DNA from: an uncultured virus (IMG/VR IMGVR_UViG_3300008108_000027)
Taxonomy: Duplodnaviria; Heunggongvirae; Uroviricota; Caudoviricetes
DNA: 20,000 nt
Virus record (IMG/VR): IMGVR_UViG_3300008108_000027
Strand: one strand, 5' to 3'
The notes under the pieces were generated by a model. That model did no database searches. It was not told the origin of the DNA and worked only from the letters and a program-made list of their open reading frames with translations. Shown here piece by piece: positions 5,372-17,160 of the stretch. Position 1 is the first letter of the stretch. Every line of letters begins with the position of its first letter. A program made the translations under genes and the position numbers.

Positions 5372-7900
5372 TTATTCGTTTATATCTTTAATTGTTAATA
5401 TATCACTTGAATCGTAATATGATAATCTTTTATTTCCACCTTGTCTTTCAAAAATATGACAAGTATATGATTCATATACAGATGGATTAGGACTTACGCC
5501 GGTTATTGTTATTACAATGTCACCATCACCGTCAGAACCACCAATAGCGGAACCTAATATAGTAATTGTGTCTCCAACATTGAAAGACGTTCCTGATGAA
5601 ACAAGTGACATACTTGTAACCTCACCACCAACAGGTGTAAACTGAAAGTCAGAACCAACACCGTTTCCACTATTTATAAATTTAGTAGGTTCAAAAAGTT
5701 CAATAATCTGTGTTGACCATGGATTATCCGTTCTATTAGTTCCTAAAGCAGTATACGTAAATGATGTTATAATACCATAATTAGTTGTAAAATCAGTCCC
5801 ACTAACGTCTGTATCAATAACATTCCATTGGAAGTAATCACCAATAGTGTTATTTTGGAAGTAATTACCAACTCTATTATTGTAAAAGTATTCTCCAATA
5901 ATATTATTTTGGAAAATATCACCAATGTAGTTTTTCTGTGAGTTAAATCCTCCAAATCCGAAACCTTCATCAATTATATTATTTTGGAAGAAACTACCAA
6001 TTTCATTATGTTGGAAATTTTGTGCAATTGTATTTCCTTGAAAAGCAGAACCTATGTTGTTACCAACAAATCCGTCACCGATAATATTACTTGTAAATCC
6101 ATCCTTAATTATATTTGCAAAAACATTACCAAAAAAGTCATTACCTAAGAAAAATGAACCGAAAGAATTATCGGCACAAATCCCACTAAATTCATTTCCT
6201 GAAACACCCCAACCTGTTTTATTGGTGTAAAACTCTTGATATATTATATTACCTTTAAATTCATTGAATATTTGGTTATCGTAGAAATGACCATATATTG
6301 TGTTATTTTCAAATCGTTCTCCAATGATATTGGTATAAAAATCTGAGTTTATTGTGTTATTATAAAAATCATGATCAATTTGGTTTTTATAAATCGATTC
6401 GTTAATTGTATTGTTAGAGAATCTAGTACCTATTCTATTTTCATAAAAATCTCTACTAGAAGGATTCAAAATATCACCTAATGTGTTATTCTCAAAATAT
6501 TCACCGATAACATTATCATAAAACACACAATAAAGGTTATTATTGTTAAATCCGTTACCAATTAAATTTCCATTACCTCCCCAATAAATTTCATTATTAT
6601 AAAATCCATTACCAATATCGTTTTTATAAAATTGTTGTTTAATTTTATTATTATTGAACTGACTACCTATTTCGTTATTTTGAAAGTCTCCTCCACTTAT
6701 TTCATTATCTCGGAAATCATTCATAATATTATTTCTATAAAAACTATTTTGGACTATATAGTTGTTATAAAAGTTTTCACCAATTCTATTATATTGGAAA
6801 TTTGAGGTAATTCTATTATTAAAAAACTCATTTCCGATAACATTAGCATCAAAGTCATCATCAGTAATGTTGTTAAAGAAATAGTTTCCAATGTTATTAT
6901 CATAACAATCATCAAAAAATGTGTTATTATAACAACTATGACCAAATTTATTACCTATAAATCTATTATGAAAAACATTATTAGCTAAAATAAAGTCATT
7001 TTCATTCTCTTGATATAAATTGGCATGATTACCAATATAATTGTTATAATTACCAGTACCGTCAAAAGTATAATACTCTCCAAATAAAGAAGGGTCATCT
7101 ACATTGTTTTGATAATAACTACCATATTCGTCCCAAAAGGTACCATACATTTTAGTATTTGGACCTAAAGTTACGGTTGTTAATCCTGTAATAGCCATTT
7201 CGGTATCACTTACAATATTTGTTACTTCAAAAACCCTAAAATCATTATTAACCGATTCAAAACCAATCTTATCGCCCACTATAAGAGTACTTAAGAAAAT
7301 AGTATCAGTACCAAAAACTGTCATTTCTGTTGAAGAAATATCCGCAACACTAACAGTTCCTTGATATGGATTGTTTAGTGAAACTTCATAGTATCTATAT
7401 CTTTTGAATAAAATTGTTCTATGATCGTAATCAGTTCTGTTATTAAACTCATCAATTCTTTCTGTTATTCTACCTTTAGCTGGTGATCCAGTTCTTTCTG
7501 TCACATTAAATGTTATATCATACTTAATACTATCTTTTGGATAAGAAGGTTGATATGCGTTTTCAGATAAAGTTGAATTTGATGTTGCAAACACAATTAT
7601 TGAGTCAATATCCGCAACTTTATAGTTATTTCCGACTATGGAATTTTTATTGTAATCATAATCAGGTTGATCATAACAAGTTTGGAAATCTGTTATTCTA
7701 TAATAAGAACCGGCAACAAATGTTGCACCTGTATATTTGTCATATAACTCTGAGTAAGTAATATCCTCAAATGTTAGATTATTAGTTATAGATGAAAAAT
7801 CTATATGATATGTTGACCCACTTAATTCTACCGGAAATAATGTGTCCGAAGTGGGATTTGCTAGATTAGTTAATTGACCGATGGTTTTTCCTGTTAACAT
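5372..7900 (-). CDS. Tailspike/fibre-like protein with long Asn-rich beta-helix, 842 aa
   Basis: N-terminal adaptor shared with 7967-9010, then a YSEL...GSYYRITDFQT module, then many 9-aa NxIGxxFxN repeats and a beta-rich C-terminus. Confidence 0.7.
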   Translation of the reverse strand: MLTGKTIGQLTNLANPTSDTLFPVELSGSTYHIDFSSITNNLTFEDITYSELYDKYTGATFVAGSYYRITDFQTCYDQPDYDYNKNSIVGNNYKVADIDSIIVFATSNSTLSENAYQPSYPKDSIKYDITFNVTERTGSPAKGRITERIDEFNNRTDYDHRTILFKRYRYYEVSLNNPYQGTVSVADISSTEMTVFGTDTIFLSTLIVGDKIGFESVNNDFRVFEVTNIVSDTEMAITGLTTVTLGPNTKMYGTFWDEYGSYYQNNVDDPSLFGEYYTFDGTGNYNNYIGNHANLYQENENDFILANNVFHNRFIGNKFGHSCYNNTFFDDCYDNNIGNYFFNNITDDDFDANVIGNEFFNNRITSNFQYNRIGENFYNNYIVQNSFYRNNIMNDFRDNEISGGDFQNNEIGSQFNNNKIKQQFYKNDIGNGFYNNEIYWGGNGNLIGNGFNNNNLYCVFYDNVIGEYFENNTLGDILNPSSRDFYENRIGTRFSNNTINESIYKNQIDHDFYNNTINSDFYTNIIGERFENNTIYGHFYDNQIFNEFKGNIIYQEFYTNKTGWGVSGNEFSGICADNSFGSFFLGNDFFGNVFANIIKDGFTSNIIGDGFVGNNIGSAFQGNTIAQNFQHNEIGSFFQNNIIDEGFGFGGFNSQKNYIGDIFQNNIIGEYFYNNRVGNYFQNNTIGDYFQWNVIDTDVSGTDFTTNYGIITSFTYTALGTNRTDNPWSTQIIELFEPTKFINSGNGVGSDFQFTPVGGEVTSMSLVSSGTSFNVGDTITILGSAIGGSDGDGDIVITITGVSPNPSVYESYTCHIFERQGGNKRLSYYDSSDILTIKDINE
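5812..7050 (-). repeat. Degenerate 9-aa (27-nt) coding repeat NxIGxxFxN, predicted beta-solenoid
   Basis: Examples: NNIGNYFFN, NVIGNEFFN, NRIGENFYN, NEIGSQFNN, NDIGNGFYN, NTIGDYFQW. Confidence 0.85.
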
Positions 7901-7917
7901 GATTTTTTCTTTTTAAT

Positions 7918-7926
7918 ATAAATATC
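7918..7926 (-). promoter_or_regulatory. Putative phage late promoter GATATTTAT
   Basis: 17 nt upstream of ATG 7900 and just downstream of a terminator. Confidence 0.65.
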
Positions 7927-7936
7927 TTTTTAAATG

Positions 7937-7961
7937 AAAAACCCTCTAATTTAGAGGGTTT
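7937..7961 (-). terminator. Intrinsic terminator after the 7967-9010 gene
   Basis: Inverted repeat AAACCCTCTAA/TTAGAGGGTTT (7939-7961) with a T-run on the minus strand, 5 nt after the stop codon. Possibly bidirectional. Confidence 0.8.
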
Positions 7962-7966
7962 GTTTT

Positions 7967-9010
7967 TTATACTGTTTCAGCAACAAATTTAAATTTATAT
8001 GTTTTACTTGGATATGTTGCAGGTATTATAATACCAAAACCATAATATTCATTACTGTACGGGTTAAACACCGCATCAATTGGACCGGCATATGTTGGAC
8101 CATTTGGATTAAGACTCAAATCAAGAACTGCACCGAGTGTATTTGAATCACCTATCTGAGTTGGATTATTAACAACAGAAGATCCTGGAGTTACTCTAGT
8201 TGTATATGTGTATGGATACCATTCAATACCAACGAGATCACCACCAATATCAACCCCACCACCTTGAAGACCTGAAGAAGATCCGTTAGGAGAAACTTTT
8301 AATGCTTTATATATACCAACAAATAATCCATACTTACCATCGGCTTCAGTGTCCAATATATTTGTTGTTACCGTTAATTTACTAATTGATTGTGGTGTTG
8401 AAAAACTGTGCCAATATTGACTATCAGGATATAAAATTAAACTTGTATCAACATTTATACCTGAACCAATACCTATTGATGGTGCTTGAAAATAATCGTA
8501 TACACCGAAAGCCTTTGTTTCTGTTCCACCAGTATGACTAATCTCAAAAATTGGATAATCCGCCACATTTGAACTTAATGGTGTTACAGTTGTTGACCAA
8601 CCGCCAGGTAATGGATTTTCATAACATACAAAATCATATGATATACCATCGTTAGGTACTCTAAAAAATCCGTCTACTATACCATTAATATCACCACCAC
8701 CATTTGATGGGAATACTCTAATTGATCTATCGGATTTATTAACAACACTAACTCTCTTACCTTTAATTGGTGTTGTGGGTAATTTTACTGCAAAATTTTC
8801 AGTTGTTGCTGTTGTTATTACATTAATACCGTAAACCAACACCGCGGTTGTACCACTATCAACACCTTGTGGTATCAAATCTGAAACCTGTTCAACAAAT
8901 CCTGAATATATCACATGATATGTTTGACCATCAAGTTGTACTGGTATAAGTGAATCTTGTGTGATTCTGTTTAAATTCGTTAATTGACCAATTGTTTTTC
9001 CTGTTAACAT
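7967..9010 (-). CDS. Virion accessory/fibre protein, 347 aa
   Basis: The first 13 aa are identical to the 842-aa protein. It carries a V.LP.....G..V.V.N......VFP..G..ING module common in phage fibre proteins. Confidence 0.65.
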   Translation of the reverse strand: MLTGKTIGQLTNLNRITQDSLIPVQLDGQTYHVIYSGFVEQVSDLIPQGVDSGTTAVLVYGINVITTATTENFAVKLPTTPIKGKRVSVVNKSDRSIRVFPSNGGGDINGIVDGFFRVPNDGISYDFVCYENPLPGGWSTTVTPLSSNVADYPIFEISHTGGTETKAFGVYDYFQAPSIGIGSGINVDTSLILYPDSQYWHSFSTPQSISKLTVTTNILDTEADGKYGLFVGIYKALKVSPNGSSSGLQGGGVDIGGDLVGIEWYPYTYTTRVTPGSSVVNNPTQIGDSNTLGAVLDLSLNPNGPTYAGPIDAVFNPYSNEYYGFGIIIPATYPSKTYKFKFVAETV

Positions 9011-9037
9011 TTTATTTTTTTTTATTTTTTTATACTT

Positions 9038-10219
9038 TTATTCAATAAATTGAAGATAAAATCCCTCACCGATTGAAATATATTCATTATTATCTGTTAT
9101 TATTGGATCTACTAGAACTTCATCTAATGGTGGACACTGACAATCACCAACATAAGTTATAGTGTAACTTGGGAATAAATCTAAATAAAAAGTTCCACCT
9201 GATATACAACTATTATCAAAAGGTGTATATTCTGTAACACCAGAATTTATGAGATCATTTTTTTGTTGTCCTGTACAACAATCAGTCCAAAATACATATG
9301 TAGAATCTGTAGTTACATCAAATTGAACTGATGTATAACAACCTGAAATCGGTGACAGACACGTACCTGATGTAACTATTGGTAAAGGATTTTGTCCCGG
9401 ACCAGTTAATTCCCACGTAGTAACTAAATCAGGTGTTGCAACATTGTCGCTACTAAAATAATAACTAGTTCCTATATTTTTTATAAACCAAAATCCTCCA
9501 AATCCTGGCTCCCAAACTATAAAATTATTTTCATTTGAATATGAATTTTTACCATCTACAATTCCCACAAATGTGTATGTACCATTAACAATAGATGATC
9601 CCGCATCGGACACACAAATTGGTCCAAATGGATCAATTGTAGGCGTTGGCGTTGGTGTTGGTGTATCTGTTGGTGTTGGTGTAGGTGTATCTGTTGGCGT
9701 TGGTGTTGGGGCATTAATTAAAAAGATTTCTGCAATAGAACCAAGAGGTGCCCCCGATAAAATCGGTTGACCAAATAAAACTTCACCGGTCAAATTACTA
9801 TATTCTTCATTTATTGTGACAATTGTTTGTCCTGTTAAGTTTGAGTGATTTATTGTAACACCAGTAGAAATAGTCACCGAACCACCTGAAAATAAACTTA
9901 AAAACATTTCAAAATATAAAGTAACGTTACCACTAACTCTACGATTAGAAATTAAGTTAAATTTACCAATTATTGAACCGGGTAAAATTTCTGTTTCTAA
10001 ACTTAATTCTAATGGTGTTGGATCGGGTACCAATAAAGAATATGTGTGATCATATTCCCCAAAGTACAAATCATATATACCATATGGGTTTGTGTCATAA
10101 TAATTAAATGGAACTGTTTTGACACCCAAATTAAACGATCCACCGGAAGTTGGATTAAAAGTAACATTTGTTGTTTTACCACTCAAATTATTACTTAATA
10201 TTCTTGCACCTATTGCCAT
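9038..10219 (-). CDS. Modular virion-associated protein (Ig-like domain, PT linker, Cys module, acidic C-terminal motif), 393 aa
   Basis: Shares domains with 10275-11741 and 13708-17160; PT linker at aa 171-194. Confidence 0.65.
   Translation of the reverse strand: MAIGARILSNNLSGKTTNVTFNPTSGGSFNLGVKTVPFNYYDTNPYGIYDLYFGEYDHTYSLLVPDPTPLELSLETEILPGSIIGKFNLISNRRVSGNVTLYFEMFLSLFSGGSVTISTGVTINHSNLTGQTIVTINEEYSNLTGEVLFGQPILSGAPLGSIAEIFLINAPTPTPTDTPTPTPTDTPTPTPTPTIDPFGPICVSDAGSSIVNGTYTFVGIVDGKNSYSNENNFIVWEPGFGGFWFIKNIGTSYYFSSDNVATPDLVTTWELTGPGQNPLPIVTSGTCLSPISGCYTSVQFDVTTDSTYVFWTDCCTGQQKNDLINSGVTEYTPFDNSCISGGTFYLDLFPSYTITYVGDCQCPPLDEVLVDPIITDNNEYISIGEGFYLQFIE
9638..9709 (-). repeat. Pro-Thr linker repeat (PTPTPTDT)
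   Basis: Direct translation. Confidence 0.9.
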
Positions 10220-10233
10220 TTTTTATTTTATTT

Positions 10234-10242
10234 ATAAATATC
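10234..10242 (-). promoter_or_regulatory. Putative phage late promoter GATATTTAT
   Basis: 14 nt upstream of ATG 10219. Confidence 0.65.
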
Positions 10243-10274
10243 TTTAATTTACTATTTATTTTTTCATATTAAAT

Positions 10275-11741
10275 TTATTCCAAAATTTCGTGATTCAGAT
10301 CACCGGTTGGTATTATCAAATAAGACAATTCTCCGTTAGGTATAATTGTATATATTGTATCGTTATTTGGGATTATTAAGTGTGTTAAGTTATTAGGTAT
10401 TATTAAATAAGACAAATCCCCGTTAGGTAATATATTATAATTTATATCGTTATTTGGAATTATTAGATATGTTAAATCATTTTTTGGTGCAAATATAAAT
10501 TCATAATTTATTGTATATTGAGCATTAATTGTATTTGGAACAACATTTAATTGATCATAAGATGCTGTGGCATTTAATAAATTGTAATCATCATTCAAAT
10601 TAACAATCGTACTTCCACTAGTACCATTTTGCTCTATTGATACTGAATTTGTTATTGTTATTGGTGATCCCGATATCACACCAAGATTATTAACAAAATT
10701 TAATGTTATAGATTCAAATAATGGTTTATCTGACGTTAATATATATTTTGATTTAATAGATCCTGGAGTGAAAATTGCCTTAAGATTTAAATTAAAATTC
10801 GTACCTGAACCAATTAAATTATCATCACATTTAACACCACAAATTTCAAAATCAAACTCATTCAGTCTGGTCATAAAATTATGATAAACCTGAACAAAAT
10901 TTAACGGTTCTTCATAATATTTTATTGTTTTTATATTAAATTCAGAAACACCTTCGTGAATACCCATCATTAATGGTGTACCACCTCCCCATGATTGTAT
11001 GAATGGTTGAACACCTCTATTTGAAGGTATTACCTCTTCAAAATCTTTTATTTTTGCAATAGGTCTACCATTTAAATATATTTTTAAAATACCCAATCTG
11101 TTTTTTCTTTCATTCGCCCATTTTCTGTTTAAAACTTCAGGATACGAATAATCGGGAGTGGCCCCCGTCATAACATCAAGAGGATTGTTATTTAATGTTC
11201 TACCGGTAATTAAATCATTCCAACCACCATCATTTTCTAAATTACAATCTGTTAATCTTTTATATCGGTCAAATGTTATTGTAATATTAAAATCTTTATT
11301 TAGATCTGTAACACATAATGGGTCCGTTTGACCATTTGTAACATAATAAGATTCGGTATACCCACTATTTGTTTGACATATACCCAAATAACGAATTGCA
11401 GACCATTTTATTCTACCATCATTTGTAAAACCAAAAGATAGGTTATTGTCTGCATAATTTTTAATGTTGTCATCACCCCTAACACCAATATAATAAAAAA
11501 TACTACCTTGTGACCAATTTAAACCCTCTCTATTGAATACAAAGTCAAGGGTCCATCCTTTTTCTGGTCTTCTTTTTATTATACCATCACAATTATCGGG
11601 ACCGGCACCACTATCAATTTTAAACGCCCAAGGTTTTACACCCGTTTTTGGGGCTTGTGAACAACAATTATCAGGATCAGATAATTTTTCCACACAATCA
11701 ATAATAGAAACCGAAAATCCCGAAATATTTAATATTGACAT
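10275..11741 (-). CDS. Concanavalin A/LamG-like domain protein with Ig-like domain and C-terminal 10-aa repeats, 488 aa
   Basis: LamG-like pattern WTLDFVF...IFYYIG...NITITFD...LKIYLNG...IKYYEEPL...V..NF, then the shared PGSI domain, then YLIIPNxD repeats. Confidence 0.6.
   Translation of the reverse strand: MSILNISGFSVSIIDCVEKLSDPDNCCSQAPKTGVKPWAFKIDSGAGPDNCDGIIKRRPEKGWTLDFVFNREGLNWSQGSIFYYIGVRGDDNIKNYADNNLSFGFTNDGRIKWSAIRYLGICQTNSGYTESYYVTNGQTDPLCVTDLNKDFNITITFDRYKRLTDCNLENDGGWNDLITGRTLNNNPLDVMTGATPDYSYPEVLNRKWANERKNRLGILKIYLNGRPIAKIKDFEEVIPSNRGVQPFIQSWGGGTPLMMGIHEGVSEFNIKTIKYYEEPLNFVQVYHNFMTRLNEFDFEICGVKCDDNLIGSGTNFNLNLKAIFTPGSIKSKYILTSDKPLFESITLNFVNNLGVISGSPITITNSVSIEQNGTSGSTIVNLNDDYNLLNATASYDQLNVVPNTINAQYTINYEFIFAPKNDLTYLIIPNNDINYNILPNGDLSYLIIPNNLTHLIIPNNDTIYTIIPNGELSYLIIPTGDLNHEILE
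10278..10487 (-). repeat. About 7 copies of a 10-aa (30-nt) repeat PN(N/G)DL(S/T)YLII
   Basis: PKNDLTYLII PNNDINYNIL PNGDLSYLII PNN-LTHLII PNNDTIYTII PNGELSYLII PTGDLNHEIL. Confidence 0.9.
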
Positions 11742-11753
11742 TACATTTTTTAT

Positions 11754-11762
11754 ATAAATATC
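11754..11762 (-). promoter_or_regulatory. Putative phage late promoter GATATTTAT
   Basis: 12 nt upstream of ATG 11741 and downstream of a terminator. Confidence 0.65.
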
Positions 11763-11785
11763 AATGAAATAAAAGATTTGATAAT

Positions 11786-11816
11786 AAAAAACCCCACATA
11801 ATACATGTGGGGTTTT
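11786..11816 (-). terminator. Intrinsic terminator after the 11839-12429 gene
   Basis: AAAACCCCACAT-aatac-ATGTGGGGTTTT hairpin (11788-11816) flanked by A and T runs. Probably bidirectional. Confidence 0.85.
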
Positions 11817-11838
11817 ATTTTTGATTTTTAATCAAATC

Positions 11839-12429
11839 TTATACTGCTAATTTTTTAACATATATTGTTGTTGGGGCACCGTTACTATTTGACGGGAATG
11901 GTGCATTTATTGATGGATTTATTGAAACTGTATAATATGTTGGTGAAGTAATGTTAACAATTGTATGACCATATATTATTTGATCGTCCGAAGTCTCTGT
12001 ACTTGAATAATCTGAAATCATATTACCTACAGTCATTGCACCGTTAGATGTTGTTGAACTATTTAATCTAACACTAACGTCGATACTATTGAATAAGTCA
12101 AAAATATGTACACTTGAAGTTATTTCATAAAATCCAGGTTCTTTAAAAAATATTCTAGCACCTGTATTACCTGCTTGTGTTGAGTTAACTAATTCAAAAA
12201 TATCGGTATTACTATTAAGAATGGTAGTGTCCCATCTAGGATAGTTTTCAACACCATTTGTTAAGTTAGCATAGTTTGTTGTCCAAGAAAAAGATGCAAC
12301 TGCGGAATCTAAAAAAACAGATCTGGTTACTTTAAATGTTTCTGTTTCACCACTATTATTCATCACCACGTATGAACCAGTGGTGTCCCCTGTAAATAAG
12401 GGTAATTGACTTATTTTAACGTTAGCCAT
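11839..12429 (-). CDS. Short fibre-like protein: N-terminal KISQLP adaptor plus C1q/BclA-CTD-like jelly-roll head, 196 aa
   Basis: Starts MANVKISQLP. The pattern P.WDT...N ... IFFKEPGFYEITSSV ... G.TIVNIT is typical of C1q/TNF-like domains. Confidence 0.55.
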   Translation of the reverse strand: MANVKISQLPLFTGDTTGSYVVMNNSGETETFKVTRSVFLDSAVASFSWTTNYANLTNGVENYPRWDTTILNSNTDIFELVNSTQAGNTGARIFFKEPGFYEITSSVHIFDLFNSIDVSVRLNSSTTSNGAMTVGNMISDYSSTETSDDQIIYGHTIVNITSPTYYTVSINPSINAPFPSNSNGAPTTIYVKKLAV

Positions 12430-12442
12430 ATTCTTTTTTTAT

Positions 12443-12451
12443 ATAAATATC
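12443..12451 (-). promoter_or_regulatory. Putative phage late promoter GATATTTAT
   Basis: 13 nt upstream of ATG 12429. Confidence 0.65.
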
Positions 12452-12477
12452 ATAGATTTATGTTTTTTCAATTTTTT

Positions 12478-13704
12478 TTAATACAAACCTACTTGATAAA
12501 ATGTTTTACCTGATAAAATTAATTTTTCGGTAGAACTTCTACCTAAAACAATATGTGTTTCGGTAATACCTGTATTTGAATAATTAACAGTTTGTCCTGT
12601 CCAAGGAGAAATATTTATGGCGTCTACAACATCATCTATTCTATTGGCGTATCCAAAATATGTAACACCACCAATTAGTCCACCAGCAAATACCAACCCA
12701 ACAATTTTTCTTGTTCCTGAAATATCAGCAACAAGAGCGGATCCCGAATCACCACCATTTATTGGATATGAACATATACTACCATTCGGTGTTGTAGTTG
12801 CACTCGCAATAAATTGTATACATCTACCAAATTGAACCACAGTGTCGTTCCCCTGCTTAGTATATGCAATATTAATTGTTACAGGATATGAATTTGTTAA
12901 AAGTTTCATTTCACCTTCACCTTTAGATCCGGTCGTTCTACCCGCACTAAATAAATTGTTTTTATTTGTTAATAATCCGTCAATTTCAGAAGAAGTTGCA
13001 AATTCGAGTGGTTGCGTCCATCCGGTAACACCTTCCATTAAATAAGAAGTACTTATGTTAATATCTGAAGAATTAATGGTTGTTAATGCAACATCTGCAT
13101 AGTTTATTGAACCACTTGAAATTGGTTTATATTTTTTTACTTTACCAATTGCATTATTTAAACTTGAATTACCCGATTCATTTGGTTGTGTAACAAAATC
13201 ATTAAGTATTGATGTTTTTATTCCACCTAAACTTCTATCTGAATTTAAAAATGCATCGTAAACTAAAACATGATTATTTGATACACCCACCAATGAATTT
13301 GTCTCGTTGTCAACAGCCAAAAACCCCATCGTCCCAACAAACCCACTTAAATCACTAAAATTTGTTACAGATATACCACATTTTAAAGGTCTTATTTTAT
13401 TTCTATTGGATGGAGGTGTTGTTTGCCAATTATAAAAATCAGAAGGACATGTTAATGGTTTTATTTCCAATTCTACCACATCTGTTTTAAATGTCTCACC
13501 AGAATATGTTATGGTATTTGGGATTAAATCTTTTTCATCCACTTGTTCTATCGGTAATTTTTTCGACACACTGAAAATCAATGATTTTTCTGTTGTTAAT
13601 AAACCATTTTTTGTTTTATATCCATATCCAACACCAATAACATTATCTGAAGTCTCTTGTTGATATTTTATTGTCAATTCATCCAATAATTTCATGTCTT
13701 CCAT
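12478..13704 (-). CDS. Trypsin-fold (PA clan) serine protease, Nal1-like, 408 aa
   Basis: Catalytic triad H145 (SNNHVL), D204 (ADVAL), S320 (GGDSGS), plus GTMG, GRTTG and VGLVFAG motifs. The N-terminal NVIGVGYGYK...V.KKLP...LIP...TDVVE domain is characteristic of Nal1-like proteases. Confidence 0.9.
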   Translation of the reverse strand: MEDMKLLDELTIKYQQETSDNVIGVGYGYKTKNGLLTTEKSLIFSVSKKLPIEQVDEKDLIPNTITYSGETFKTDVVELEIKPLTCPSDFYNWQTTPPSNRNKIRPLKCGISVTNFSDLSGFVGTMGFLAVDNETNSLVGVSNNHVLVYDAFLNSDRSLGGIKTSILNDFVTQPNESGNSSLNNAIGKVKKYKPISSGSINYADVALTTINSSDINISTSYLMEGVTGWTQPLEFATSSEIDGLLTNKNNLFSAGRTTGSKGEGEMKLLTNSYPVTINIAYTKQGNDTVVQFGRCIQFIASATTTPNGSICSYPINGGDSGSALVADISGTRKIVGLVFAGGLIGGVTYFGYANRIDDVVDAINISPWTGQTVNYSNTGITETHIVLGRSSTEKLILSGKTFYQVGLY

Positions 13705-13707
13705 ATG

Positions 13708-16700
13708 TTATAAATTTGGTATAAAGATAAATAATGTGTTGACTGTTGAATCAATTATTAAAAAATCAGAATTTTCTGTTAATATATTATCCGAACCTTC
13801 CGTTGATAAATAATCTTCAGGGACACTTGTCGATGTTGGCGTTGGTGTAGGTGTTGGAGTTGGCGTCTCAGTTGGTGTAGGTGTACTAGTTTCAGTTGGT
13901 GTAGGTGTACTAGTTTCTGTTGGTGTAGGTGTACTAGTTTCTGTTGGCGTTTCTGTTGGTGTAGGTGTACTAGTTTCTGTTGGTGTAGGTGTACTAGTTT
14001 CTGTTGGCGTTTCTGTTGGTGTAGGTGTACTAGTTTCTGTTGGCGTTTCTGTTGGTGTAGGTGTACTAGTTTCTGTTGGTGTTGGCGTCTCCGTAGGAGT
14101 TGGCGTTTCTGTTGGCGTAGGTGTACTAGTTTCAGTTGGTGTTGGCGTACTAGTCTCCGTAGGAGTTGGTGTCTCGGTTGGCGTAGGTGTACTAGTTTCT
14201 GTTGGTGTTGGCGTTTCTGTTGGTGTCTCGGTTGGCGTTGGTGTACTAGTTTCAGTTGGTGTTGGTGACGGTGTTGGGTCAGGACACTCATCCTGTTCTA
14301 ATGAAATATAATCACTATTCTCAGTTAATACATAAAACCCATCTTCTTTTGTTAATAATTTTTCACAAGTTTCTATTGGTGTTGGTGTTGGCGTTTCAGT
14401 TGGTGTTGGCGTACTAGTCTCCGTAGGAGTTGGTGTCTCGGTTGGTGTTGGTGTTTCTGTTGCAGTTGGCGTAGGTGTTTCTGTTGCGGTTGGTGTAGGT
14501 GTACTAGTTTCTGTTGGTGTTGGCGTTGGTGTACTAGTTTCAGTTGGCGTTGGTGTACTAGTTTCTGTTGGTGTAGGTGTACTAGTTTCTGTTGGTGTTG
14601 GCGTTGGTGTACTAGTTTCTGTTGGTGTTGGCGTTGGTGTACTAGTTTCTGTTGGTGTTGGCGTCTCCGTAGGAGTTGGCGTTTCAGTTGGCGTTGGTGT
14701 ACTAGTTTCTGTTGGTGTTGGCGTCTCCGTAGGAGTTGGCGTTTCAGTTGGTGTTGGCGTACTAGTCTCCGTAGGAGTTGGTGTCTCGGTTGGCGTTGGC
14801 GTAATAGTTTCAGTTGGTGTTGGGGACGGTGTTGGGGTCGGTGTTGCTGTAGGTGTAGGAGTAGGTATTGTCACATACACATAGTTAGTTGAAATTGTGA
14901 AACCACTTAAAGTTCCTCCTGTTGTATTAACAGTAATATTTTCAAATTGAGATTCTAGTGTTAGTTCATTATAATTACCATTTGTTACGATTTGTGTCGT
15001 TCCACTTGTTGTACCACTTGATAATAATAATGTAACATTATTAATTATCGGACTTCCAGTTGTGGTATATAATACCTCATCAAAATTTAAAGAAATGTCA
15101 AAATCATATTGTTGAAATATATATGTATTATAATTACTGATTATTGAACCTTCAGTATGTTCAGATTCAATAATTATTGTACCACAATTTCCATCTTCAA
15201 ATATTATATAATCACCATTTTCAGTTGTTATTAAATTACCATTTTCACCTTCAACTATTATTTCACATAATGGTAATGTAGGTGTTGGTGTTGGAGTTGG
15301 TGTTTCTGTTGGAGTTGGAGTCTCAGTTGGTGTAGGCGTTGGCGTACTAGTTTCAGTTGGTGTAGGCGTTGGCGTACTAGTTTCAGTTGGTGTAGGCGTT
15401 GGTGTTTCTGTTGCAGTTGGCGTTGGCGTACTAGTTTCAGTTGGTGTAGGCGTTGGTGTTTCTGTTGCAGTTGGCGTTGGGGTTGATGTTGCGGTTGGTG
15501 TAGGCGTTGGAATAGGTCCGGGTTCCGCACCAAAAATACCCCATAAAAGATTTGTTCTAAATTCTATACCAGTAAATGTTAATGTTATTTGACTATGTGT
15601 ACCTGGGAATCTTATAACACCATATCCTTCATTTGATGATATTTTTTTATTTATTGGATCAACTATTAGTCCATTAAAACATGTCGGATAACATGGATCA
15701 AAATTAACAAAATCAACATCGGTAAAGAATGTTTGAGTTTGTGTCGGCGAACCTAAAGACCAAACACCTAATAATGCGTCTGTTATTTGAGGATTAAATG
15801 TAAAGGTTAATTGATTTGGACCCTCAACTAAATAGGTTATACCAGTACTCGGTTGTGTAACATCAGTACATGTTAAACAATCTGTAAATTGTGCACTTTC
15901 TTTACTTACAATTCCCGATCCACTATAACTCACTGAAACATCATGAGATTGTGTTGTTGTTATAATTTGACCTTCAGTAACACCTGTATTTATAAAATAT
16001 TCCCAAACAATATTTTGAATACTTGGTGTTGGTGGAAGTGTAGGTGTTGGAGGAGTACAATCGTTTATCTCGGTATATATTATACTACCATCTTCTGTTG
16101 TTATAATGATATCATTTTCACCTGACACAACACCAATACAAGTACCTATATTAGTGGTTATACCACCTTCATCATCAATAACACTTGATGCACAGAAATA
16201 AACCTGACTATTACCCGAAACTTCAATTGTGATAGGTGAAGAAGTTAAACAATCCAAATATGTTACAAAACTTGAACTTGGGAAAGTGTTATTTGCTAAA
16301 TAACAATAACAATTAAGTATAGTAGGTGTTGGCGTTGGTGTAGGTGTACTAGTTTCTGTTGGTGTAGGTGTACTAGTTTCTGTTGGTGTAGGTGTACTAG
16401 TTTCAGTTGGTGTTGGTGTACTAGTTTCTGTTGGTGTAGGTGTACTAGTTTCAGTTGGCGTTGGTGTACTAGTTTCAGTTGGTGTAGGTGTACTAGTTTC
16501 TGTTGGTGTTGGTGTACTAGTTTCAGTTGGCGTTGGGGTTGATGTTGCGGTTGGAGTACTAGTTGCAGTTGGAGTACTAGTTGCAGTTGGAGTACTAGTT
16601 GCAGTTGGAGTACTAGTTGCAGTTGGAGTACTAGTTGCAGTTGGTGTTGGAGTACTAGTTGCAGTTGGTGTTGGAGTACTAGTTGCTGTTGGAGTACTAG

Positions 16701-17160
16701 TTGCGGTTGGGGTTGGTGTAATTGTGGGTGTTGGGGTTAATGTCGGGCTAGGTGTTGGTGTCGGAATGGCAATACTTAAATAATGAGTTTCTCCCGATAT
16801 TCCAACATATGTATATATATGATTACTTAGTATTATATGAGAATAGATATATTCAGGAACATTAAAATGTGTTACAAATTCATTGTAGTTAAATGTTACA
16901 GATAAACCGGAATATATATAATTAGGATTATTTATCGTATTATCTATCTCAACAAGTGTTATTGTTAAGGTATTACTACTAAAATTTTCTAAACTATCGT
17001 CTATTTTTAATGAATTATAAAAAATTGGACCACTAAAATCAAGTACCTCTTTATTGTAATCATTACCTATTTTTGATAATTCATAATCGTAATATTCTGA
17101 GCTATCCAATTTAACATCTAATCTAGACCCAAAAAACTTTAAAATGTTCTGATTATTCAT
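13708..17160 (-). CDS. Large Pro/Thr-repeat (mucin-like) modular scaffold protein, 1150 aa
   Basis: Four PT(E/A)TS blocks separate small globular or Cys-containing modules and acidic TE(N/D)G motifs. No signal peptide or transmembrane segment is visible. Confidence 0.85.
13834..14283 (-). repeat. PT block 4 (PTPTETST / PTET units)
   Basis: Degenerate 12-30-nt tandem repeats. Confidence 0.95.
14377..14865 (-). repeat. PT block 3
   Basis: Degenerate tandem repeats encoding PTPTET(ST). Confidence 0.95.
15277..15510 (-). repeat. PT block 2
   Basis: Mostly 30-nt units encoding [10 protein letters not shown] / PTPTATET. Confidence 0.95.
16321..16764 (-). repeat. PT block 1
   Basis: 18-nt PTATST units followed by 24-nt PTPTETST units. 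Confidence 0.95.

Follow-up and report, generated by a model that had tools for sequence, protein, structure and literature searches.

A fibre module of a T4-like jumbo myovirus in which C-terminal acidic peptides and N-terminal tags of consecutive gene products may form cognate joints

The window analysed here is a 20,000-nucleotide stretch of DNA from an uncultured virus, corresponding to G000:C1:23463-43462 of a 286,785-bp IMG/VR virus record with an estimated completeness of 86% and a G+C content of 30.5% (G### labels denote phage records, G000 being the one that contains the window, and L### labels denote loci fetched around relatives). A row of genes on its minus strand, running from 17160 down to 5372 and adjoining a family B DNA polymerase gene, appears to encode a receptor-binding fibre module composed of exchangeable parts and belonging to a T4-like jumbo myovirus. 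Three heads of this module, namely a TNF/C1q-like jelly roll, a nonapeptide-repeat body, and the body of protein P0003, share an N-terminal adaptor of ~40 amino acids (aa), hereafter the tag, and the gene upstream of a tagged gene typically ends in an acidic β-strand-turn peptide, usually behind a long Pro-Thr (PT) or poly-Thr linker. It is tentatively proposed, with a confidence somewhat short of even, that the C-terminal acidic peptide of the upstream protein forms a cognate joint with the N-terminal tag of the next protein, which would place exchangeable heads on flexible leashes. The upstream peptide would receive the tag of the protein encoded next, and consecutive gene products would be joined head to tail, as in the long tail fibre of T4. 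In particular, type 1 peptides would pair with B-type tags and type 2 peptides with A-type tags. In such joints, peptide and tag would bind each other on the virion, and the heads would be trimeric.

The elements from which this proposal is built are real, conserved, and specific to protein termini, and they co-occur and adjoin each other. In a profile search, just three open reading frames (ORFs) of G000 carry the tag:

11839..12429, minus strand: P0006, 196 aa, B-type tag and TNF/C1q-like jelly-roll head (AlphaFold2, AF2, and Foldseek)
12310..12429, minus strand: B-type tag of P0006, aa 1-40 (profile)
7967..9010, minus strand: P0003, 347 aa, A-type tag and 300-aa body (BLASTP tag match)
8891..9010, minus strand: A-type tag of P0003, aa 1-40 (BLASTP and profile)
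5372..7900, minus strand: P0002, 842 aa, A-type tag and nonapeptide-repeat body (BLASTP and periodicity)
7781..7900, minus strand: A-type tag of P0002, aa 1-40 (first 39 nt 90% identical to the start of P0003)

The N-termini of P0002 and P0003 are identical at 24 of 36 residues (BLASTP, E 3e-11). The N-terminus of P0006 is invisible to BLASTP and joins the family by profile only: hhalign aligns the A and B sub-families in register over 41 columns with a probability of 62% (E 7.8e-5). As both sets were chosen by a profile containing both kinds, this alignment gives moderate support for a single family, helped by the existence of sequences intermediate between A and B tags. The peptide shared by three proteins, as an earlier reading of this DNA from its sequence alone (the sequence-only reading) had it, is therefore upheld by BLASTP for P0002 and P0003 and by the profile for P0006.

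A three-sequence tag profile searched against 1.84 billion representatives returned 166 clusters at E<=1e-3. Among the 150 listed of these 166, 136 have the tag within the first ~50 residues, comprising 65 of A type (MLTGKTIGQL...), 55 of B type (MANVKISQLP...), and 16 variants or intermediates; the other 14 are internal-repeat false matches. The tag-bearing proteins range from 40 to about 1600 aa. The bodies of 30 that were fetched include, as judged by eye, collagen-like, SHSEG-type fibre, propeller-like, and P0002-type nonapeptide-repeat bodies, the last of which stands behind the tag in many database relatives. Down to low identity, the tag keeps conserved hydrophobic and Gly/Thr positions over 40 residues. 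It is thus supported that the tag is a true, widespread adaptor on exchangeable bodies, and the 136 clusters bear out the earlier suggestion of an adaptor placed before unrelated bodies. A tblastn search of phages with the P0006 tag pointed to T5-like 'distal tail protein' genes (E 0.6); this match was dismissed as chance because it falls on the opposite strand from the gene. A-tag genes open with ~32-39 nt that hardly differ, even at synonymous sites (window 7862-7900 and 8972-9010; L051:9992-10030; L057:9992-10030), a gene start that resembles a recombination box through which head genes could be swapped.

The type 1 acidic peptide is found in the largest protein of the row, in the following arrangement:

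13708..17160, minus strand: P0001, 1150-aa PT-linker scaffold or fibre protein (ORF; relatives with the same N-terminal domain and modules)
15517..16020, minus strand: β-rich domain of P0001, aa 381-548, common to relatives' scaffolds
16057..16140, minus strand: module 1, type 1 capped (C-x26-C), aa 341-368 (domain E 1.8e-11)
15184..15267, minus strand: module 2, type 1 capped, aa 632-659, right behind an 82-aa PT block (1.4e-11)
14284..14367, minus strand: module 3, type 1 capped, aa 932-959, flanked by 168- and 156-aa PT blocks (1.5e-14)
13756..13818, minus strand: module 4, type 1 open (no Cys pair), aa 1115-1135, then a 13-residue tail (2.2e-5)

P0001 consists of an N-terminal 132-aa domain, PT blocks (aa 133-281, 549-630, 764-931, and 960-1115; ~550 residues altogether), a Cys-rich domain, the β-rich domain, a domain at aa 660-763, and the four modules. 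The ORFs and their translations agree with the sequence-only reading, and the four acidic copies are where it had placed them, though the pattern turns out to be richer than it described. The motif by which it defined them occurs four times in P0001 and once elsewhere among 392 G000 ORFs (89,032 residues), which is beyond the expectation from 200 residue shuffles (mean 0.13; maximum 2 in total and 1 per protein). Moreover, the type 1 profile finds only the four P0001 domains in G000 (E 1.5e-14 to 2.2e-5), the next-best match having an E of 0.15. A position at the distal end of a PT block, claimed for three copies, is likewise correct: a long PT block directly precedes three of the four modules, and the Cys-rich domain precedes module 1.

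The capped unit is exactly 28 residues long, C-x26-C, and is built of three hhhxE(N/D)x(D/N) octapeptides. An alignment of ten copies, taken from the window and two relatives, needs no gap; across 15 copies representing five lineages, Cys1, Glu8, Glu16, and Cys28 never vary and Glu24 hardly does. The modules are retained in two lineages whose linkers are poly-Thr/Ser instead of PT: in the PT-linker lineages the module is always C-x26-C, and in the poly-Thr lineages the Cys, three Glu, and Cys are kept. In one of the latter (L016:6146-9946 and L017:5167-9966), poly-Thr/Ser runs with EEP replace PT while modules and β-domain are kept. Linker chemistry is free; the beads are not. PT linkers lacking a module are present in five other G000 ORFs. 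Open type 1 copies are also found at C-termini in relatives, and the internal, disulfide-closed copies of P0001 are the same element, which may serve there either as extra sockets or as structural beads only.

Two calcium-binding folds were considered for the module and ruled out. An RTX-type β-roll (GGxGxDxUx nonapeptides) does not fit a period of 8, a consensus of hhhxENxD with no Gly pair, and the absence of a Pfam match; an EF-hand-like Ca2+ motif likewise mismatches in period and consensus. An AF2 prediction of the module alone (38 residues), in which the first and last strands pair, reached a pLDDT (AF2 confidence score) of 77 in the best model and 51-58 in the other four, a confidence too low to justify searching by fold. 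Word-based protein searches returned nothing for P0001 aa 629-672 (the module region) or aa 1-132 (the N-terminal domain), and the ESM Atlas gave no usable match for the latter. A locus search with the module alignment yielded 601 pattern stretches, none confirmed by tblastn, and one with the single P0001 β-domain retrieved near-identical contigs only.

The type 2 peptide ends a second PT-linked protein, directly before a tagged gene:

9038..10219, minus strand: P0004, 393 aa, with an N-terminal ~65-aa domain, PT linker, Cys-rich domain, and terminal type 2 peptide (ORF)
9041..9124, minus strand: type 2 peptide, C-terminus of P0004, 28 bp before P0003 (profile 7.3e-17, the copy itself being a profile member)

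Its consensus is DPIITDxDEYISVGxxFYLxFI(E/D). In relatives, the same peptide ends two unrelated proteins and, in a third lineage, stands in tandem between PT linkers. The sequence-only reading had regarded the end of P0004 as related to the acidic motif of P0001. A relationship stands in the form of a second flavour; as a type 1 module, the peptide was ruled out, because the type 1 profile misses it in the G000 search (E 0.25 in a second run).

The arrangement of these peptides and tags along the genome carries the proposal. In nine of 15 non-redundant tagged genes, the immediate upstream gene ends in an acidic peptide 12-58 bp away; seven of these nine peptides are profile-supported (three being type 2 profile members) and two were recognised by eye only. 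Of the remaining tagged genes, two have the peptide internal in the upstream gene, two are preceded by a protease gene lying between, and two are second in a tagged tandem. The type 2 peptide keeps its place before an A-tag gene on three unrelated carriers, namely P0004, a 354-aa protein in L051, and the scaffold of L057. Homologous upstream proteins also occupy a syntenic site preceding the polymerase gene; that of L051 has a terminal type 2 peptide followed by an A tag, but in G012 both the peptide and the tag are different (L051 versus L058). Such a change of carrier and the joint switch of peptide and tag go beyond simple synteny. Across six loci, a lax Fisher test returned p = 0.0015, although the pairs are not independent. 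As judged from these sequences, adjacency points to the terminal peptide of the upstream gene, not to every internal copy.

Co-occurrence across relatives follows the same pairing. Loci were fetched around relatives of P0006 (14), the P0001 β-domain (6), and A-type tags (10), and removal of near-identical contigs left about six lineages of one phage group, among which the domains of PT-linked proteins are heavily shuffled. Tag types were read from the loci, and types 1 and 2 from whole-record profile searches. B tags and type 1 occur together in G000, G002, G004, G005, G006, and G015, and A tags and type 2 in G000, G011, G012, G013, G014, and G015. There is no record with an A tag and only type 1, or with a B tag and only type 2. 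G003 has a degenerate type 1 copy, recognised by eye only, and G001 is cut at a contig end; G004 and G011 are pieces of one phage kind, bridged by the contig behind L014 and L052. G012, a complete 321-kb genome with terminal repeats, has an A tag and type 2 but lacks a P0006-type gene, and type 1 was found in none of its 10 candidates (E<=0.1); the capped type 1 motif is therefore dispensable for A tags. The link between motif and tag is closer than the sequence-only reading could tell. The co-occurrence foreseen there is thus found as a pairing of flavour with tag type and as adjacency, also outside the phage group, whereas the general rule fails in the complete G012, which has tags without the capped module.

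Outside this group, a tag profile was used that comprised 120 regex-classified A/B database matches, none from the phage group studied, and the last 35 residues of every ORF were scored with the type 1 and type 2 profiles. In the crAss-like phage cr11_1, the N-terminus of a 594-aa protein, gp_19872, matches the tag (2.3e-6; 1.2e-8 and rank 1 of 76 ORFs in the ranking), and the gene upstream of this tagged gene, gp_19871, also ranks first of 76 for a C-terminal type 2 peptide (E 0.0045; next 0.48). A tblastn search with the crAss tag retrieved its own record only. In G010, a 99%-complete 210-kb phage, the tag match is a 230-aa protein in the fibre cluster, and the two top-scoring C-termini for type 1 among 223 ORFs (E 0.0018 and 0.088) are those of the immediate upstream neighbours of the tag matches ranked third and first. 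A random-label simulation gave p = 0.013 for cr11_1 and 2.5e-4 for G010, with rank cut-offs picked after seeing the data and two profiles tried. The peptide-tag pairing thus appears to recur in two outside phages, one crAss-like and the other an unrelated phage of 210 kb.

A number of observations weigh against a joint between peptide and tag. Adjacent genes are co-inherited whether or not their products touch, and many of the 15 pairs are homologous syntenic positions, leaving ~six independent lineages plus the two outside phages. A protease gene intervenes between scaffold and tagged gene both in the window and in L011, and P0001 continues for 13 residues beyond its last module. The scaffolds of G012-G014 have their type 2 peptides internally and a different domain at the C-terminus. 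The copy-number correlation that had been expected of motif and tag is not seen: the numbers are uncorrelated across relatives, G002, G004, and G005 (genome fragments) having 5-6 modules and one tag each, and G000 having three tags (two of A type), four type 1 copies, and one type 2 peptide. Mean net charges of -1.7 for A tags, 0.07 for B tags, and -7.7 for modules show no charge complementarity. The peptides of the outside phages score low; two of the four best tag matches in G010 have no upstream C-terminal match in the top six, and the type 1 profile run on the whole cr11_1 genome finds nothing at E<=1, missing the crAss peptide. A PDB sequence search with the tag profile and the tagged crAss protein found no relative of solved structure. 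Finally, the near-identity of A-tag gene starts spans three lineages while the flanks are far more diverged, and it would fit a recombination box as well as protein-level selection. Co-folding of an internal capped module, including its flanks, with a P0006-type tag (residues 1-45) gave scores of 0.02 and 0.01 against a mark of 0.32; with no controls and with the fold of the partner itself uncertain, this outcome, which concerns the internal capped module only, speaks neither for nor against binding.

These observations have to be read against three other explanations. It is somewhat unlikely, and still deserving of weight, that the tag is an ordinary anchor into a baseplate, tail-hub, or capsid pocket, and that the peptides have another role, either as beads, stabilised by Ca2+, that make the PT strings stiffer or oligomeric, or in weakly binding glycans or cell surfaces; the two would then travel together only because they sit at the junction of a cassette exchanged whole. 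Such anchoring is known from PhicrAss001, in which residues 1-26 of the trimeric tail fibre gp22 are held in the tail hub and residues 1-38 of the head fibre gp21 in a capsid hexon pocket (PMC10172136); by analogy, this would support a tag that goes to the virion body. The near-identical nucleotides of A-tag gene starts across lineages and the lack of matching charges and copy numbers are also in keeping with an anchor, the Glu-8/16/24 and Cys pair of the module would suit metal binding, and the genome encodes both a baseplate wedge protein and a fibre-attachment catalyst resembling T4 gp63. However, an anchor does not account for a peptide that stays beside the tag gene while its carrier protein changes, for peptide flavour and tag type switching together, or for the recurrence of the pairing in a crAss-like phage and in G010, neither having DNA similarity to the G000 phage; and a recombination box would leave unexplained why the C-terminal peptide is conserved at the protein level over such distances. 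A further idea is that there is no protein-level docking at all and that peptide and tag are conserved gene-boundary sequences, a recombination box with late-promoter or translation-start context, for the shuffling of head genes. It would agree with the A-rich spacers of 12-58 bp and with the first ~32 nt of A-tag genes, where three lineages, and likewise P0002 and P0003, are near-identical even at synonymous sites. Nevertheless, it is highly improbable in view of the 136 N-terminal tag members that keep their hydrophobic and Gly/Thr positions down to low identity, of module Cys and Glu residues that are invariant while the remainder varies, of internal modules far from any gene boundary, and of outside phages that have the peptides in the absence of DNA similarity to the G000 phage.

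The sequence-only reading had gone further than a joint at gene ends, proposing that every P0001 module, the internal ones included, is a socket, so that a cellulosome-like scaffold would display an array of tagged heads on PT linkers. Internal capped and terminal open copies do belong to one profile family, a capped copy can be a C-terminus (that of an 844-aa protein in L011), internal copies are always flanked by linkers and conserved across linker chemistries, and the internal tandem type 2 peptides of G012-G014 are the sole copies beside the A-tag gene. This full array is improbable, since the adjacency signal belongs to the terminal copies, relatives with 5-6 modules have a single tagged gene in the available sequence (though one head could fill all sockets), and among the 150 listed tag matches the module occurs in none (best full-sequence E 0.046) and PT linkers in four. 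Homology to the cellulosome in particular has been abandoned: a Pfam scan of P0001-P0006 found no family, cohesin or dockerin included (none for P0001 at E<=0.01), and no dockerin appeared in P0002, P0003, or P0006 (Pfam) nor in their first 50 residues at E<=10. The use of internal capped copies as further sockets is, taken by itself, quite unlikely. The proposed joint between consecutive gene products could also be widened into a general two-piece connector code, with an acidic β-peptide as socket, a ~40-residue I(S/G)QL...G.T(Y/F)(H/K)(I/V) plug, and cognate flavours to separate one head from another, extending from jumbo myoviruses to crAss-like podoviruses. If the internal P0001 copies were also sockets, a ~150-nm Pro-Thr string would carry several C1q-like and other heads as a scaffoldin-like array that arose independently of cellulosomes. 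From the sequences compared here, a code of such breadth is unlikely.

If the joint between terminal peptide and tag were confirmed, the assembly order of fibres and the pairing of heads with stalks could be read from sequence in many uncultured phages. Its reach would be at least 136 tag-bearing protein clusters, a crAss-like gut phage included. It would provide a very small connector pair (about 25 + 40 residues) for laboratory swapping of receptor-binding heads, and it would explain several unrelated heads on long flexible leashes in one jumbo phage. Even if binding fails, the mini-domain and the tag family remain undescribed, conserved building blocks of fibre proteins.

Of the three heads, that of P0006 is best characterised. 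Its AF2 model has a mean pLDDT of 81, with the head mostly at 80-94; the first 40 residues are of lower confidence and contain a hairpin at 19-24 and 32-37. In Foldseek, aa 43-196 match TL1A, APRIL, BAFF, C1q, BclA, and F-BclA (E ~1e-6 to 1e-5, probability 1.0, target template-modelling score 0.65-0.75), with 331 PDB matches at E<=0.001 and a jelly roll of ten strands, so that AF2 and Foldseek agree on the C1q-like head that had been predicted. The head is probably homotrimeric, because it has the C1q/TNF fold and because collagen-like stalks stand behind the same tag in relatives. Longer fibre-like proteins of other phages carry this head as their C-terminal domain, and in a tblastn search with P0170 the part common to freshwater phages was the C1q-like head, not the tag. 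P0002 displays a strong 9/18-residue periodicity of N, G, F, and I (NNxIGxxFx-like units) at aa ~290-700, which suggests a β-solenoid; this periodicity is the sole basis on which the β-helix described earlier for P0002 can be kept.

Two further genes lie within the row, and one of them touches on the proposed joint:

12478..13704, minus strand: P0007, trypsin-like serine protease with a GDSGS motif (phrog_20754, 4.6e-23)
10275..11741, minus strand: P0005, 488 aa, whose body is fused to PT linkers and modules in one relative (ORF)

P0007 lies between the scaffold P0001 and the first tagged gene, P0006, and a protease gene has the equal position in L011. Near-identical tails (..NTLFMFIPNL in L011) end both scaffolds directly upstream of the protease gene (window 13708-13746; L011:8039-8077). 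The tail stands right after the last module in the window, and an extra PT stretch intervenes in L011; scaffolds that directly precede a tagged gene are without it. The shared tail may be a propeptide or a protease recognition tail, and P0007 may trim the 13 residues from P0001 and thereby open the last socket. The C-terminus of P0005 (window 10278-10487) consists of ~7 tandem (L/I)IPN(N/G)D-type repeats (type 3, LIIPNND), a third flavour of strand-turn peptide; a stretch resembling this repeat sits between PT linkers in L057. A relative of 75% identity has a 950-aa fusion of a P0005-type body, PT linkers, three modules, and the P0001 β-domain (L011:5225-8077); domains therefore shuffle freely between the genes of the window. 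The first ~65 residues of P0004 (window 10025-10219; ..TF.P.(S/T)GG(S/T)FNLG....P(F/Y).Y..) are common to the PT proteins at G000:C1:254552-255499 and 255529-257868. This domain is a second shared N-terminus in the phage and is present in L015, L053, and L055 as well. PDB sequence searches of P0007, P0005, P0002, and P0008 returned no meaningful match.

The source phage is a T4-like jumbo myovirus, to judge by its virion PHROG matches and the relatives of its capsid protein. A PHROGs scan covered 87 of the 94 ORFs of >=280 aa, the other seven being window ORFs that were scanned separately. It identified in G000 a tail sheath, a T4 gp23-type major head protein, a portal, a large terminase, a baseplate wedge subunit, and tail proteins; the virion-module matches are phrog_23 (4.4e-61), phrog_138 (2.6e-66), phrog_213 (1e-65), phrog_2 (3.1e-37), and phrog_219 (7.1e-21). 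The closest isolates by capsid protein are Rhodothermus phage RM378, Microcystis phage Mel-JY01, and other large myoviruses. A megablast of the whole window against phage records gave no match, and the phage therefore has no close phage record. A T4 gp63-like 'RNA ligase and tail fibre attachment catalyst' is encoded at G000:C1:77502-78572 (phrog_562, 4.8e-71) and may bear on fibre attachment.

In the literature searched, supplements not covered, no paper was found on PT-linked phage fibre scaffolds or cohesin-dockerin-like virion systems, nor any description of a 28-residue Cys-closed acidic mini-domain or of the N-terminal tag family. Individual features of the module can nevertheless be set beside known systems. 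Trimeric C1q/TNF-like heads are known from Bacillus spores (BclA and ExsFA), Ena fibres (F-BclA), C1q, and TNF ligands; the P0006 head shares their type of fold, with an identity of 8-19% to its matches. BclA and some members of the tag family have a collagen-like stalk where P0006 has the 40-residue tag. Cellulosome scaffoldins use PT linkers to space cohesins, ~150-aa β-sandwiches that bind dockerin-tagged enzymes, the dockerin being a C-terminal, duplicated Ca2+-binding helix pair. Here, too, long Pro-Thr linkers space repeated small modules and unrelated cargo shares a tag, but the module has 28 residues instead of ~150, the tag is a β-hairpin-like N-terminal peptide, and the setting is a virion and not a cell surface; the cellulosome may serve as an analogy only. 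The long tail fibre of T4 consists of gp34, gp35, gp36, and gp37, joined serially and encoded by consecutive genes. Its gene order mirrors the order of assembly, with each C-terminal end meeting the next N-terminal end, as is proposed for the module described here, although small peptides on flexible linkers would here take the place of rigid rod ends. Searches of the window proteins with Pfam and PHROGs found no similarity to T4 fibre proteins.

Phages with branched or docked fibres are closer counterparts. Short N-terminal peptides serve to dock trimeric fibres in PhicrAss001 (PMC10172136) and in Klebsiella, G7C, and K1-5 phages (PMC6872550), a precedent that speaks for the proposed joint. 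In PhicrAss001, a very short N-terminal segment holds the fibre, as would be the case here, and a remote member of the tag family occurs in the crAss-like cr11_1; the acceptors in PhicrAss001 are, however, hub and capsid proteins and not the C-terminal peptide of the preceding gene product. PhiKp24 demonstrates that jumbo phages can build hyperbranched fibre sets (PMC9700779). In these Klebsiella, G7C, and K1-5-type phages, the secondary receptor-binding protein (RBP) uses its conserved N-terminal peptide to dock on a T4gp10-like branching domain of the neighbouring primary RBP (PMC6872550). No such domain was found in the window proteins by Pfam and PHROGs, whereas the published detections used more sensitive HHpred-level searches (PMC6872550). 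Anchor-branched RBP systems of this kind include the SP6- and PhiK64-1-types, and docking is reported to have been validated experimentally in KP32, K11, and KP34 (PMC13352976). Modular RBP docking through conserved N-terminal peptides is thus already known, and the locus would be a variant of it. As in the anchor-branched systems, a short conserved N-terminal peptide is found on several unrelated bodies in plug-and-play fashion, the peptides vary between groups, and the docking partner, here a candidate one, is encoded by a neighbouring RBP gene. What sets the present module apart is its candidate acceptor, an acidic β-peptide of 22-28 residues located at the C-terminus or between linkers, and the long PT or poly-Thr leashes that go with it.

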